NCBI GenBank assembly: GCA_964618695.1
Contig: CAZUDX010000004.1
Location: 162,736 to 226,735 of the forward strand
Direction: 5' to 3'
Source: an uncultured Candidatus Bathyarchaeia archaeon
GTDB lineage: Archaea; Thermoproteota; Bathyarchaeia; Bathyarchaeales; Bathyarchaeaceae
DNA length: 64,000 nucleotides
Numbering within the stretch: position 1 is the stretch's first letter; every line of letters starts with the position of its first letter. Below are positions 3,166 to 26,419 of this stretch, piece by piece. Below the pieces are notes generated by a model that was not told the DNA's origin, searched no databases, and worked only from the letters and a program-made list of their open reading frames with translations. A program made the position numbers and the translations under genes.

Positions 3166-3232
3166 ACTAAAACATACAACTTTAAAAGGCTCCGCCGCCC
3201 CCTCCTTTATTTCAGGGAGGCCATAAAACGGA

Positions 3233-3739
3233 GTGAAAACAGCACTATGCAATTTCTGCTTGAAAAGCGGAATATTATGTTCAAAGTGTCAAGGAAAACT
3301 CAAGTCGGGAAAGGTCAGTGAAGTAGACTTCAAAATCGCCCGCTTACTCTTATCTCTGGAAGAACAATATCCTTCCCTTCAAGAAGTACATTTTCACAAG
3401 GCTGTAGAAGCAGACAGGATTCTCGCCATCTTGGTAAATAAGGGTGATGTGCCACGTCTTCTAAGTCATGGAGGAAAAATTGTCAGGGCTCTAGGCGAAA
3501 AGACGGGAAAAACTATTCGTGTTCTGGAACATGGAGTGACTGAGAGAAAGTTTTTGGAAGACCTGTTTGTGCCCTTGAGCATTCTGACAATAAACAAGAT
3601 TTGGTTGCCTGACGGAACCACCGAGACGAGAGTCATCTTGAAACGCGGAGGACGAAAAAGGCTTCCCTTAAATGTAAAATCTTCGAGGGAAATTGCCCAA
3701 GAACTTCGGGGAATGACCCTCAGAGTAGAATTCGCTTGA
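3233..3739 (+). CDS. NusA-like KH-domain protein with N-terminal zinc finger
   Basis: CNFCLKSGILCSKC; GGKIVRAL..K.GK.IRVLE; INKIWLPDGT; commonly found next to aspS in archaea. Confidence 0.8.
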   Translation: MKTALCNFCLKSGILCSKCQGKLKSGKVSEVDFKIARLLLSLEEQYPSLQEVHFHKAVEADRILAILVNKGDVPRLLSHGGKIVRALGEKTGKTIRVLEHGVTERKFLEDLFVPLSILTINKIWLPDGTTETRVILKRGGRKRLPLNVKSSREIAQELRGMTLRVEFA

Positions 3740-11778: not shown

Positions 11779-13005
11779 ATGAGCGGCATGATTACCGGTG
11801 TCCAACTTACCAAACGTGGCTTTCTGGTAACGTTGACTCTTTTTTTTACTTTTTTTATATGGTATTTTGTTTTTGCTCCTTTGGCTCTGCAGCATGTCGT
11901 TGGTTCAATTGATGGAATCTATCCAATAGTTTATGGAGCTTTCAATTTTGTCATTGGTATCAGTTTGATATTAAGCGGTTTTTTCATTCATCAATTCAAT
12001 AAAATACGTTTAATCTATAGATGTTCAATAACCATTTCAATAGTGACTATTGTTCTTCTTTTTGTTTCAAATATTATTCTTAAATTAGCAATGATTTTTA
12101 TAGGGGGAATATTTTTTGGTATAGGTCAGTTAGTTTTCCTTACGTTTTTCTGGAGCTTAACCGTGCCTGAAGAAAGAGGTCGTATATCTGGTATCGCTGG
12201 TTTTTCCATTCTACCCTTTTTTCACATCATATGGCTAACAGCTGAAAACTTAGATTTTTTTGGGATAATATTTTTAGGTCTTATTCTTAATTTAGGAATG
12301 CTCGGGATTAGATTATTAAGACCTGAACAAAAAATTTTATTGACGAGAAAGAGGGAAGAAAAAGGATATATTCCTGAGAAAAAAACTGTCCTTTTTTACG
12401 CTATTCCGTGGATAATCTTTTCCTTAATTAATGCAACACTTGCAAGCAACATATCACTAAATGTTTTTCTTCGTCTTCCATCTTACCTATACGTGATTCT
12501 CCTAGTTTTGCAAATGATTGCATCTGGTGTCGGAGCGTTAGGTGGAGGAATAATTGCAGATCTCTTTGGACGAAAGCTTTCACTAATTTTCAGCCTTACT
12601 TTATATGGAATTAGTTCGGCTCTCGGGGGATTTGTCGAAGACTATGCAGTATTCTATTTCATATACGTAGTAAATGGCTTGAATTGGGGGATCCTTTGGG
12701 TATTATATGGTTCCGTAGTTTGGGGTGATCTAGCCAACCAAGAAAGTTACGCCAAGAGATACGCGCTGGGATTAACAGTCTTTCATTTGTCTATGGGCAC
12801 AGGAAATCTTCTTTCTTTTCAAATATCTCAGATATCAATACTAGTTAGTGCCCTAATGAGTTGCGTTTTTATTTTCCTTTCAAATATACCTCTAATTTTA
12901 GCTCCAGAACTATTAACCTCAGATTTCCAGGAAAAGATAAAATTAAAAGTACATATTAATGTCATCAAGAAAATCAGGAAAAAACAATCGAAAGATTATG
13001 GGTAA
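11779..13005 (+). CDS. MFS transporter
   Basis: About 12 hydrophobic segments; PEERGRISG and GGIIADLFGRK (MFS motif A). Confidence 0.88.
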   Translation: MSGMITGVQLTKRGFLVTLTLFFTFFIWYFVFAPLALQHVVGSIDGIYPIVYGAFNFVIGISLILSGFFIHQFNKIRLIYRCSITISIVTIVLLFVSNIILKLAMIFIGGIFFGIGQLVFLTFFWSLTVPEERGRISGIAGFSILPFFHIIWLTAENLDFFGIIFLGLILNLGMLGIRLLRPEQKILLTRKREEKGYIPEKKTVLFYAIPWIIFSLINATLASNISLNVFLRLPSYLYVILLVLQMIASGVGALGGGIIADLFGRKLSLIFSLTLYGISSALGGFVEDYAVFYFIYVVNGLNWGILWVLYGSVVWGDLANQESYAKRYALGLTVFHLSMGTGNLLSFQISQISILVSALMSCVFIFLSNIPLILAPELLTSDFQEKIKLKVHINVIKKIRKKQSKDYG

Positions 13006-13937
13006 ATACTATTGAACGTTCTAGGGAATGTGGAAGCATCTCTGATTTCATTTAGTTTGCAGATCCACTGAATCAACCTTTCAACACCTATCACAAATCC
13101 CGAGTGGGGAACAAGACAATTTTGCTTTAGATCCATATACCACCGTTGATCAACAGGTTCTATCTTTTCATCCGCCATCTTTTTGAGCAACACCTTTTTT
13201 TCGTCTATCATTTTTCCCCCACCTGCAATCTCACCATATCCCTCTGGGGCGAGCAAGTCAACAGATAATGTTAACTCTGACCTTTGGGCATTAGATTTGT
13301 AGAAAAATGTCTGAATACTAACTGGAAAATCCGTAATAAAGAAGGGTTGATCAAATTGAAGACTGATTTTTTTCTCCAATTCCCAAGTTAGTTCTTCCCC
13401 CCAAAGGATGTTAATTCCATTCTTTTGCAACAATTCGATAGCCTCATCGTAGGTTAACCGTGGAAAAGGAGCTCTCACTTTTTCCATATTTTCAAAATTA
13501 CGTTGCAATAATTTCAACTCCTTTTGCGCTCCTTTTAATAAACTTTGGCAAATGTAAGCCACCAACTCCTCCTGAACCCGCATTATACCTTTAAAACTAC
13601 ACTTAGCCGCCGCTTCAATCCGCCAGTATTCTGTTAAATGTCGCCTTGTTCTCACTTTTTCAGCTCTGAAGGCAGGGGCTATTGTATAGACTTTTCCCAA
13701 ACTAGCAACAAAAGTGTCCGTGTAAGGTTGAAGTCCTTGTGTAAGGTAAGCTTTCTTATCGAAATATTTGACCTCGAAATGACCGGGCCACTCTCCAACT
13801 GCGGGAATTAATATTGGTCCTTGAACTTCTGTATAACCTTGTTGGTTAAACCATTTCCTAGTTGCATTCAGCACTTTTGCTCTTACTTTCATTATTGCCT
13901 GTTTTCTTTTACTCCGTAAGTCGTGATTGCCAAACAT
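12996..13937 (-). CDS. AsnRS-like class II ligase catalytic domain lacking the anticodon-binding domain
   Basis: Starts at LRSKRKQAIMKVR (the catalytic-domain boundary); FRAEKVRTRRHLTEYW, DLLAPEGYGEI, VPHSGFVIGVERL. Confidence 0.88.
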   Translation of the reverse strand: MFGNHDLRSKRKQAIMKVRAKVLNATRKWFNQQGYTEVQGPILIPAVGEWPGHFEVKYFDKKAYLTQGLQPYTDTFVASLGKVYTIAPAFRAEKVRTRRHLTEYWRIEAAAKCSFKGIMRVQEELVAYICQSLLKGAQKELKLLQRNFENMEKVRAPFPRLTYDEAIELLQKNGINILWGEELTWELEKKISLQFDQPFFITDFPVSIQTFFYKSNAQRSELTLSVDLLAPEGYGEIAGGGKMIDEKKVLLKKMADEKIEPVDQRWYMDLKQNCLVPHSGFVIGVERLIQWICKLNEIRDASTFPRTFNSIYP

Positions 13938-14082
13938 GAGTTATTTGGGAAGAAACTTACTAAAGTAAGTTTGCTCAAAAGGTTTTATGAACCCGAAACA
14001 CGTGCAAACAACAATAATAAAATGGAAAGCAATACGAGCCGACCACATGCTTTTCAAGATTTGGGCACTGACCATTGGGCTT

Positions 14083-14241
14083 TTAGTCATCTGTTACTTT
14101 GACCATCAGAACTTTTTTTGCCCATGGAATTACAACCGGGTATTTTTGAAGCTCCCTAGAAATTTCATTCTCAATTTCTTCATTCGACAATTCGTTGCTT
14201 TCCTTCACAAGTGAAATTAAAAGCATAACTTTCTTATTCAT
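14083..14241 (-). CDS. Small hypothetical protein, 52 aa (missed by the ORF track)
   Basis: GGAGGAG SD; MNKKVMLLISLVKESNELSNEEIENEISRELQKYPVVIPWAKKVLMVKVTDD*. Confidence 0.7.
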   Translation of the reverse strand: MNKKVMLLISLVKESNELSNEEIENEISRELQKYPVVIPWAKKVLMVKVTDD

Positions 14242-14451
14242 AAAGAACTCCTCCATGCCATCTCAATTGTCATAATAAGAGATTTTGGTTTAAACTTCAC
14301 TATCAATGCATTATCCCAGTCTGAGCCTCTTCTATCTCAATATAACCAATCTTTTTATGTTATATAATTGTTGCTTAACAAACAAAATAAGGTCATGCAT
14401 ATTTTGTCAAAAAAAGGGGGATTTGCGGGGGATGTCTCCAGTTCTTCTGAC

Positions 14452-14475
14452 AAATGCGGATTCACTGGACCATAG
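14452..14475 (+). repeat. attR-like direct repeat (displaced 3' end of zinc-finger gene)
   Basis: AAATGCGGATTCACTGGACCATAG = KCGFTGP*; differs from 8406-8429 only at three wobble positions. Confidence 0.85.
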
Positions 14476-14580
14476 CGAGAGTTTAGCGGAACAAGGTTTT
14501 TTCTGTTTCTGGAAGGAAATGGCATAGTCTTGCTGGTCTAATCTAAACGCTTTTATGTATTAATCATCAATCACAGTAGC

Positions 14581-14648
14581 AGCAGCGGGTAGGTGGAGCC
14601 TCCCACCCGTTCCGCAATACAAATCCCGGAGTAGGGAGGTGAAAATGA
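14581..14648 (+). promoter_or_regulatory. Structured 5' leader of queT; candidate translational riboswitch (pseudoknot)
   Basis: TATA-like TTTTATGT at 14551; stem 14584-90/14605-11; loop GCCTCCC complementary to SD GGGAGGT (14634-40); small helix at ~14611-14/14627-30. Confidence 0.5.
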
Positions 14649-15176
14649 GTGAAAACTAGTGAACTAAGCTTAGCAATAGTCTTCTCCAGTTTATACGCGG
14701 TTCTCGTCGTTGTTTTAGCTCCCATATCTTATGGTCCTGTTCAACTTCGTGTCGCCGATTGTCTAATTCCATTAGCGGCTCTGTTCGGTTGGCCAGTGAT
14801 TGCTGGCGTAACAGTTGGCTGCTTCATAGGCAACACATACTTCTGGCTTGGCCCTCAAGATGTTTTCTTGGGAACAATCGCAAATCTGATCGCGGCAACA
14901 ATCATTTTTGTGCTCAGAAACAGACAATTCGTAGCTTGCGTTTTAGGTTCTTTACCAATCGGAATCATCGTAGGCGGCTACCTTTGGATTTTCTTTCCCC
15001 CACCAGACATCTTCGGATTACAGTTGCCAATGTGGAGCGCCATGATCGTAAGCATAACAATTAGCACTTTGATAGCGGTTGCAGGAATAGGCTATGCTCT
15101 ACTTAAAACATTAAGCAGTCCTAGCGTTACCACTGCGTTCAAATCACGGGGAATAAAAATCTACATTAAAGAATGA
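14649..15176 (+). CDS. queT: QueT family transporter (7-deazaguanine precursor uptake, ECF S-component-like)
   Basis: LYAVLVVVLAPISYGPVQLRVADCL...GVTVGCFIGN...DVFLGTIA. Confidence 0.9.
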   Translation: MKTSELSLAIVFSSLYAVLVVVLAPISYGPVQLRVADCLIPLAALFGWPVIAGVTVGCFIGNTYFWLGPQDVFLGTIANLIAATIIFVLRNRQFVACVLGSLPIGIIVGGYLWIFFPPPDIFGLQLPMWSAMIVSITISTLIAVAGIGYALLKTLSSPSVTTAFKSRGIKIYIKE

Positions 15177-26317: not shown

Positions 26318-26419
26318 GGGCCCGTAGCTCAGCAAGGCAGAGCGGCGGACTGGTCCTACGGGACTAGGTTGAGGCTCTTAACCCGTAGGTCAGGGGTTCA
26401 ATTCCCCTCGGGCCCGCCA
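26318..26419 (+). tRNA. tRNA-Lys(CTT) with a 25-nt intron (26349-26373) at non-canonical position 30/31; CCA encoded
   Basis: GGGCCCG/CGGGCCC acceptor stem, GGTTCAATTCC T-arm, spliced anticodon arm GCGGG-CTCTTAA-CCCGT; bulge-helix-bulge motif around the intron. Confidence 0.93.

Follow-up and report, generated by a model that had tools for sequence, protein, structure and literature searches.

Riboswitches of the preQ1 family have, according to the relevant parts of a 2024 review (PMC11625349), been described from bacteria in three classes (I to III) comprising five motifs. Of immediate relevance here is preQ1-II, which the same parts of the review confine to Bacillota, place before queT, and describe as an HLout pseudoknot with helices P1 to P4 and with the Shine-Dalgarno (SD) sequence buried in P3. 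The locus reported here lies in a window of 64,000 nucleotides (nt), the whole stretch of DNA that was analysed, from an uncultured Candidatus Bathyarchaeia archaeon (assembly GCA_964618695.1, contig CAZUDX010000004.1, positions 162,736 to 226,735). It consists of a queT gene and its leader, in which a preliminary description, made from the letters of the window, had proposed a ligand-responsive translational switch of preQ1-II-like topology. Across a total of 177 distinct instances of the motif that we collected, mostly from Bathyarchaeia, the leader is a real, strongly conserved RNA of the 5' untranslated region (5'-UTR). It is a deeply conserved cis-acting RNA linked to the 7-deazaguanine genes queT, queC and queE, and to this extent the proposal stands. 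The leader probably represents an undescribed class of archaeal riboswitch that would sense preQ0, or a close 7-deazaguanine relative, and switch translation off. The features of the locus, all on the plus strand, are the following (BRE, transcription factor B recognition element).

14543..14558, plus strand: archaeal promoter, with an A-rich, BRE-like CTAAACGC (14543-50) and the TATA box TTTTATGT (14551-58)
14582..14588, plus strand: 5' strand of stem P1, core GCGG 14585-88 (covariation, RNAalifold)
14589..14596, plus strand: 5' strand of the inner helix (P1b and P2), near-invariant consensus GU RR GUGG
14598..14604, plus strand: anti-SD GCCUCCC in the apical loop, 5' strand of the pseudoknot (loop-SD pairing in 177/177 instances)
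14603..14611, plus strand: 3' strand of P2 and P1b, CCACCCGU, with the bulged U14611; the block AYCCGUU is near-invariant
14612..14618, plus strand: 3' strand of P1, core CCGC 14612-15 (covariation)
14616..14629, plus strand: linker, with an A-rich tract, conserved AAA 14621-23 and near-invariant CCCGG 14625-29
14634..14641, plus strand: 3' strand of the pseudoknot, GGGAGGU 14634-40, overlapping the SD GGAGGUG 14635-41 (covariation; duplex estimate -14.3 kcal/mol)
14649..15176, plus strand: queT coding sequence, 175 amino acids (aa), GTG start (PF06177, E 8e-26)

Conservation and gene context of the queT leader

The open reading frame (ORF) 14649-15176 belongs to PF06177, and the leader therefore does precede queT, as had been stated. 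By this assignment QueT is the S component of a transporter of the energy-coupling factor (ECF) type for queuosine/archaeosine precursors. A QueT protein search over 61 related genomes found orthologues in 50 of them, and 30 loci were compared. In 28 of the 30, judged by eye, a block of about 60 nt stands directly before the start codon, with the consensus GCGGGU-RR-GUGG-(loop with CCUCC)-AYCCGUUCCGC-(A-rich)-AAAYCCCGG-N3-5-GGAGGU. This block is near base-for-base identical among the 28 loci, whose QueT proteins are 55-87% identical; the leader is more strongly conserved than the protein. In the remaining two loci (L015 and L022) the block is found about 1.2 kb farther upstream, where it stands ahead of another QueT paralogue, encoded before queT and only 32-33% identical to the QueT of the window; counted by eye, about 7 of 56 bases differ between the L015 leader and that of the window. 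These two loci are from the same genus, and each has a single motif copy (L015, genome G006, 276-346; L022, genome G017, 3180-3248) ahead of two tandem QueT paralogues.

A scan with the exact pattern, sampling one genome per prokaryotic species, matched at least 117 loci. Among the matches listed, 103 carry the full motif; 14 GC-rich bacterial matches (e.g. L038, L050, L056, L095) have the 5' half only, with no 3' half, and were set aside as chance matches. The true matches listed come mostly from metagenome-assembled genomes (MAGs) of Bathyarchaeia/Bathyarchaeota, and further labels among them are Methanomethylicota/Methanomethylicus (L043, L075, L109), 'Nitrososphaerota' MAGs, and one Promethearchaeati MAG (L103). 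A covariance model (R1) finds a single copy in the window's own genome. In a sample of 151 genomes from the class it matches 91 (71 of the 95 of high quality); in one of 151 genomes from the phylum it matches 28, and four families that do not belong to the class are among these. The motif is not universal for archaeal queT: G205, a genome from another family of the phylum than that of the window, has two QueT genes with short leaders (L234, L235) that R1 does not match even with its filters off. Four other genomes without the motif are also without QueT. In four loci (L228-L231) about 130-150 nt lie between the motif and the conserved N-terminus of QueT downstream of it, which would mean either that the ORF is extended N-terminally by about 45 aa, beginning right after the pseudoknot, or that a second start is used.

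A QueT-like ORF follows on the same strand after 170 of the 177 instances (local tblastn, E<1e-4). Three others (L049, L102, L107) are followed by a QueE-like radical-SAM ORF, for which the best NCBIfam matches are five QueE models (E 1e-20 to 1e-26); these ORFs are N-terminal fragments and score below the full-length cut-offs. One instance (L077) precedes QueC (PF06508, E 4e-26; TIGR00364), one precedes an ORF without Pfam or NCBIfam match of which only the first 122 aa are present (L065, 2-367, minus strand), and two are cut by the contig end. No purine-metabolism gene is found downstream in the 177 instances, and the genes upstream of the motif vary between loci. The motif is firmly tied to preQ0 supply genes; going by the annotation of these ORFs, an importer and two enzymes of biosynthesis, all of which would supply preQ0, are encoded behind the same RNA motif. 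Two features expected of a riboswitch are thus present at these loci: a conserved, structured 5'-UTR RNA with covariation support, and its occurrence before several gene families (queT, queC, queE) of the transport and biosynthesis of one metabolite. According to the parts of the review that treat the subject (PMC11625349), riboswitches are classically recognised by just such a pattern, in which a single RNA motif stands before genes that transport and synthesise one metabolite.

Structure of the leader

Stem P1 has the consensus NNGCGG/CCGCNN and is exactly what RNAalifold predicts when run unguided. In the window it is made up of the four core pairs plus G14582.U14618, with mismatches A14584/A14616 and C14583/A14617. 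Over 98 sequences the pair adjoining the core (alignment columns 8-44) is GC in 62, AU in 16, UA in 6, GU in 6, CG in 3 and unpaired in 5. The next pair outward covaries as well (U-A 33, A-U 16, C-G 4, plus wobbles), with 39 of the 98 unpaired. For P1 and the pseudoknot together, 90.8% of the cells are paired in 123 sequences (78.8% when shuffled), and the covariation score is 0.312 versus 0.132 for shuffled alignments, a value reached by 0 of 500 shuffles; slid controls score 0.06-0.07. With divergent sequences included (98 sequences), the score is 0.289 versus 0.141.

Because the register of the MAFFT alignment slips by one base near the loop and the SD, between GGGAGG and GGAGG types, the pseudoknot was re-checked without alignment. 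At least five contiguous anti-SD/SD pairs are present in 177/177 instances, with a mean of 6.7 pairs versus 4.9 for shuffled tails. The flanking pairs of the pseudoknot show five to six pair types. Compensatory variants include GUCUCCC/GGGAGGC, UCCUCCC/GGGAGGA, CACCUCC/GGAGGUG, UUCCGAC/GUCGGAA, GUCUCUU/GAGAGAC and GCCCUCCU/AGGAGGGC, and the shorter combinations GCCUCC/GGAGGU and ACCUCC/GGAGGU occur too. P1 and the SD pseudoknot are firmly supported by covariation. The preliminary description had asked for an alignment of queT leaders, and that alignment yields strong conservation and covariation for both elements; it had also pointed to the complementarity of GCCTCCC (14598-14604) with GGGAGGT (14634-40) over seven pairs (one G.U), overlapping the SD, and the covariation confirms this pairing as a pseudoknot.

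Between P1 and the loop lie P1b and P2. P1b is made of a G.U and a U.G pair, followed by one G-C pair and one A x C mismatch; RR is either GA or AG, and this decides which of the two positions pairs. In the window P1b reads G14589.U14610, U14590.G14609, A14591xC14608 (mismatch) and G14592-C14607. P2 is GUGG/CCAC (G14593-C14606, U14594-A14605, G14595-C14604, G14596-C14603). Among 83 distinct inserts, 85% of cells are paired in this register, versus 41-59% in shifted registers. In eight divergent variants C-G (L180, L184, L185), G-C (L181, L182, L190) or A-U (L192, L194) stands in place of the U-A pair of P2 (14594-14605), and in the model-based alignment (98 sequences) this position is U-A in 76, U-G in 3, C-G in 2, G-C in 2 and unpaired in 9. 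These substitutions give P2 some support by covariation. C14603 and C14604 belong both to the anti-SD and to the top two pairs of P2 (with G14596 and G14595), so that the full P2 hairpin and the pseudoknot are mutually exclusive at this point. This overlap is a feature of the family as a whole; in members with the short loop, one CC serves both the anti-SD CCUCC and CCAC. In one divergent subfamily (L196-L198, L232, L233), CCCCAAAA replaces CCCCGG, which is near-invariant elsewhere; the P1b of this subfamily is fully Watson-Crick (GG/CC), P2 is absent, and a compensated loop-SD pseudoknot is retained before QueT.

For the CCCGG of the linker we tried, by eye, the GUGG(G) block, GCGGG, CCGUU, and the local CCC/GGG hairpin of RNAfold as partners, and found none consistently possible or covarying. 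In variants with a single R instead of RR, the opposite strand is also one base shorter, and most of them have a shorter linker between CCCGG and the SD; this hints, and is only suggestive, that the R-block, the opposite strand and the linker meet in space.

Two helices of the preliminary description fared less well than its pseudoknot. The first is a 7-bp stem of AGCGGGT (14584-90) with ACCCGTT (14605-11). All the strings named are present, and these two can form seven pairs (one G.U) around a 14-nt loop (14591-14604); pairing is possible in 61 of the 83 distinct inserts, as scored on the six inner pairs (G9-T14 with 33-38), the outer A8-U39 being left out. This stem shares its 3' strand with P1b/P2 but takes GCGGGU as partner, and so competes with P1 for GCGG. 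It was rejected as the principal fold: it is incompatible with the covarying P1, no double substitutions are seen, its closing U stays U where the partner becomes C or U (the alternative P2 partner covaries instead), and its energy is -7.8 kcal/mol versus -16.1 kcal/mol for the P1+P2 hairpin. It is conceivable as an alternative conformer. The second, a short helix of TCCG (14611-14) with CGGA (14627-30), was dropped. Both strings are present, but the helix would occupy the 3' strand of P1, there is no covariation, and its T-A pair is not kept: the T is invariant and the partner column holds A 59, T 37, G 16, C 10 and one gap (n=123).

The promoter lies at a fixed distance from the element. When 122 distinct upstream regions are lined up at the G of GCGGG, an A-rich signal appears at -41 to -37 and a near-pure A/T signal at -36 to -29, which have the look expected of an archaeal BRE plus TATA box. 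The TATA-like box already remarked on at 14551-58 is present. The usual archaeal spacing between TATA box and start puts the transcription start about 4-8 nt before GCGG, which in the window gives a predicted start near 14578-14583. Since the TATA/BRE distance is fixed, the mRNA would begin with the element, which would occupy the extreme 5' end of a queT leader of about 68 nt (about 14581-14648); the SD ends 7 nt ahead of the GTG start at 14649.

Upstream of this promoter, an unusually long AT-rich spacer of about 600 nt (13938-14542) separates it from the divergent upstream gene, and contains a 57-aa ORF on the minus strand (14083-14256) without Pfam match. The divergent gene (12996-13937, minus strand) encodes a 313-aa protein that consists of the catalytic core of a class II aminoacyl-tRNA synthetase (PF00152, E 7e-60) without an anticodon-binding domain, and may be an asparagine synthetase of the AsnA type or a paralogue of a synthetase. 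Further downstream (26318-26416, plus strand), an Rfam tRNA match of 52 bits is 99 nt long versus 71 positions of the model, which suggests an intron-containing archaeal tRNA.

Proposed mechanism and competing explanations

The genome of the window is 95% complete and encodes the tRNA-guanine(15) transglycosylase TgtA (TIGR00432, 576 bits; cut-off 350). In this genome QueD/PTPS has no match, QueC has just weak N-terminal PP-loop matches within far larger ORFs (277-515 aa), none of them convincing, and the ORF most similar to QueE is NrdG2, the activase of anaerobic ribonucleotide reductase. Since TgtA is present and QueC, QueD and QueE were not found at this completeness, the organism apparently depends on imported preQ0, and appears to be a preQ0 auxotroph that lives by preQ0 salvage. 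That preQ0 is the substrate of TgtA is established pathway knowledge, also given in the pertinent parts of PMC5372724, where both the role of QueT as a salvage transporter and an archaeal route of preQ0 salvage are predictions. The apparent dependence on preQ0 fits QueT as such a transporter, and the pathway content of the genome favours preQ0 as the ligand.

From what is established here, namely conservation, gene association, fixed promoter spacing and covariation (for P1 and the pseudoknot, with some for P2), we infer that a ligand binds, what it is, in which direction it regulates and where its pocket lies, as follows. The transcript would begin a few bases ahead of a long hairpin composed of P1 (GCGG/CCGC with variable outer pairs), P1b (GU RR opposite CCGUU) and P2 (GUGG/CCAC), and the anti-SD GCCUCCC of its apical loop would pair with the SD 30 nt downstream to form the pseudoknot. 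Two states would be available: with the full P2 hairpin the SD would be free, and with the pseudoknot, which takes the two top C residues of P2, it would be hidden. A ligand bound in the invariant core would stabilise the pseudoknot and repress translation. To this core we would assign the C that faces A as a mismatch in P1b, the bulged U, and the AAA-CCCGG linker; the linker would run along the long hairpin and help to form the pocket. When the base is plentiful, synthesis of QueT would be turned off here, and that of QueC or QueE in some relatives; such end-product repression would be sensible for an importer as well as for QueC and QueE. In the window the hairpin is estimated at -16.1 kcal/mol, freeing the anti-SD costs about 6.5 kcal/mol, and the anti-SD:SD duplex yields about -14.3 kcal/mol before loop penalties; on these estimates a modest ligand contribution could tip the balance between hairpin and pseudoknot.

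Several points weigh against a preQ0-sensing riboswitch, or at least temper the case for it. Folded alone, the queT leader does not beat chance (minimum free energy -26.1 kcal/mol, z = -1.64; 14 of 200 shuffles fold equally well); it exceeds chance by virtue of conservation and covariation over the 177 instances, not by its single-sequence fold. P1 of the window has just four Watson-Crick pairs. There is no covariation in the core helices (GCGG/CCGC, most of P1b and P2), whose bases do not vary, in part because the search pattern itself fixed them, and the support for P2 comes from the eight divergent sequences, which belong to few lineages, with 9 of 98 sequences unpaired there. Some of the 'double changes' in the pseudoknot (columns 29/78 and 30/77) are a coordinated one-base indel (GGGAGG versus GGAGG) and not substitutions. 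Complementarity between anti-SD and SD is moreover the one most likely to arise in any leader with an SD, and the related sequences are not independent, so that the shuffle statistics overstate significance. For the conserved CCCGG and AAA no partner was demonstrated, and the motif is absent before some QueT genes of the phylum, as in G205.

Alternatively, a protein might bind the conserved leader and control access to the SD; candidates would be an RNA-binding protein that senses preQ0, or TgtA/ArcS if the leader has a feature that they would recognise as tRNA-like. A protein could equally well contact the long invariant blocks (GU RR GUGG, AYCCGUU, AAAYCCCGG), which are single-stranded or imperfectly paired. 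AGUGG and GUUC also loosely resemble the D-loop and T-loop signatures of tRNA; a tRNA mimic was rejected, since variants of the AG type have G at the would-be invariant A14, and the compensatory changes show that the U of GUGG is base-paired. We consider a protein site unlikely, because no conserved regulator gene accompanies the motif (only queT, queC or queE stand downstream, and the upstream neighbours vary) and because one motif before the transport and biosynthesis genes of one metabolite is what the relevant parts of PMC11625349 present as the mark of a riboswitch.

It is quite improbable that the leader is a ligand-independent structure, i.e. one that damps or sets the rate of translation, an RNA thermometer, or a stabiliser of the 5' end of the mRNA. 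Structures that sequester the SD do act without ligands in many mRNAs, and the pseudoknot by itself is predicted to be stable, from the duplex estimate of -14.3 kcal/mol. Occlusion, however, needs just complementarity, whereas about 35 near-invariant positions that do not pair with the SD are kept in at least two classes of the phylum. Such a structure would also leave unexplained why the motif is limited to three gene families that share a pathway, as well as the built-in competition between P2 and the pseudoknot.

There is only a slight chance that a riboswitch at this place answers to another ligand (guanine or another purine, the archaeosine base, or 7-carboxy-7-deazaguanine, CDG): identity is read from gene context only, and QueE and QueC act before preQ0, which makes CDG or another intermediate conceivable, but the common denominator of QueT, QueE and QueC is the supply of preQ0, the substrate of the genome's own TgtA, and purine-metabolism genes are missing downstream of all 177 instances.

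If the leader is indeed a preQ0 riboswitch, the preQ riboswitch family would extend to a second domain of life by way of the archaeosine precursor, with a new small pseudoknot fold for 7-deazaguanine recognition. To our knowledge, few riboswitch classes are documented in Archaea (thiamine pyrophosphate, fluoride). The element would furthermore provide a direct regulatory handle in uncultured Bathyarchaeia and possibly an inducible element for archaeal genetics, and the motif would mark which sediment archaea depend on scavenged preQ0.

Comparison with described riboswitch classes

At the gathering threshold, an Rfam scan of the whole window returned only a tRNA, and a permissive scan (E<=10) of 13900-14750 gave only two chance matches to small RNAs elsewhere in that stretch. 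The comparison with the preQ1-I, preQ1-II and preQ1-III models, suggested in the preliminary description, came out negative: neither these (RF00522, RF01054, RF02680) nor the rest of the 4227 Rfam families matched the leader or 20 diverse variants at E<=10 with permissive filters. That the element is a highly divergent member of preQ1 class I, II or III is very improbable: pathway, gene (queT, as for preQ1-II) and SD burial in a pseudoknot are shared, as is an A-rich tract 3' of the first stem with preQ1-I (in the pertinent parts of PMC11625349), but no Rfam model matches, there is no P4-like insert, helix lengths and conserved blocks differ, and the known classes are, in the same parts of the review, bacterial, with class II in Bacillota only.

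The likeness to preQ1-II (RF01054) lies in the position in the leader of queT (COG4708), the pairing of a hairpin loop with a 3' tail that holds the whole SD (as in an HLout-type pseudoknot), the translational OFF design, and the family of 7-deazaguanine ligands. The proposed preQ1-II-like topology holds in so far as a hairpin loop pairs with the SD-bearing 3' tail upstream of queT; the closing stem is a different one, and no P4-like hairpin lies between the stems. An equivalent of P4 was sought in the linker, where the sole candidate was the unsupported TCCG/CGGA and which is otherwise unstructured. The element further differs from preQ1-II in failing the RF01054 model, in that its loop-bearing stem is a long three-part hairpin with invariant blocks of its own, and in that its anti-SD overlaps the top pairs of that hairpin. 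It is found in Archaea (Bathyarchaeia, Methanomethylicota-labelled and other MAGs), not in Bacillota, and its likely ligand is preQ0, not preQ1.

Partial likenesses to preQ1-I (RF00522, types 1-3), as far as the corresponding parts of PMC11625349 describe that class, are a small, apparently H-type pseudoknot with which the mRNA would begin, the A-rich tract already mentioned (here with a conserved AAA after P1), the inclusion of part of the SD in the pseudoknot, and the position before queC/D/E/F operons and transporters. It differs in having no RF00522 match, in its size (about 60 nt versus a compact 34 nt or so), in its conserved nucleotides, and in that the partner of the pseudoknot is here the apical loop of a 15-pair hairpin. 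From preQ1-III (RF02680) it is set apart by the lack of a model match. SAM-II and guanidine-III riboswitches are ligand-stabilised H-type pseudoknots that bury the ribosome-binding site, which is a general likeness of mechanism; their sequence, ligand and gene context are unrelated, and none of them matched in the Rfam scans. In searches of the open-access full-text literature we found no description of an archaeal preQ0/preQ1 riboswitch or of a 'preQ1-IV'.

On balance we incline to regard the queT leader as a fourth, structurally distinct 7-deazaguanine class, and the first native to Archaea, which would be tuned to preQ0 and would work by a competition of the SD and the hairpin's own 5' strand for two cytidines; the element is widely distributed among Bathyarchaeia and also occurs in further lineages of the phylum. 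By analogy with the described systems, the element appears to work like a translational riboswitch of the preQ1 type but to belong to no described class.

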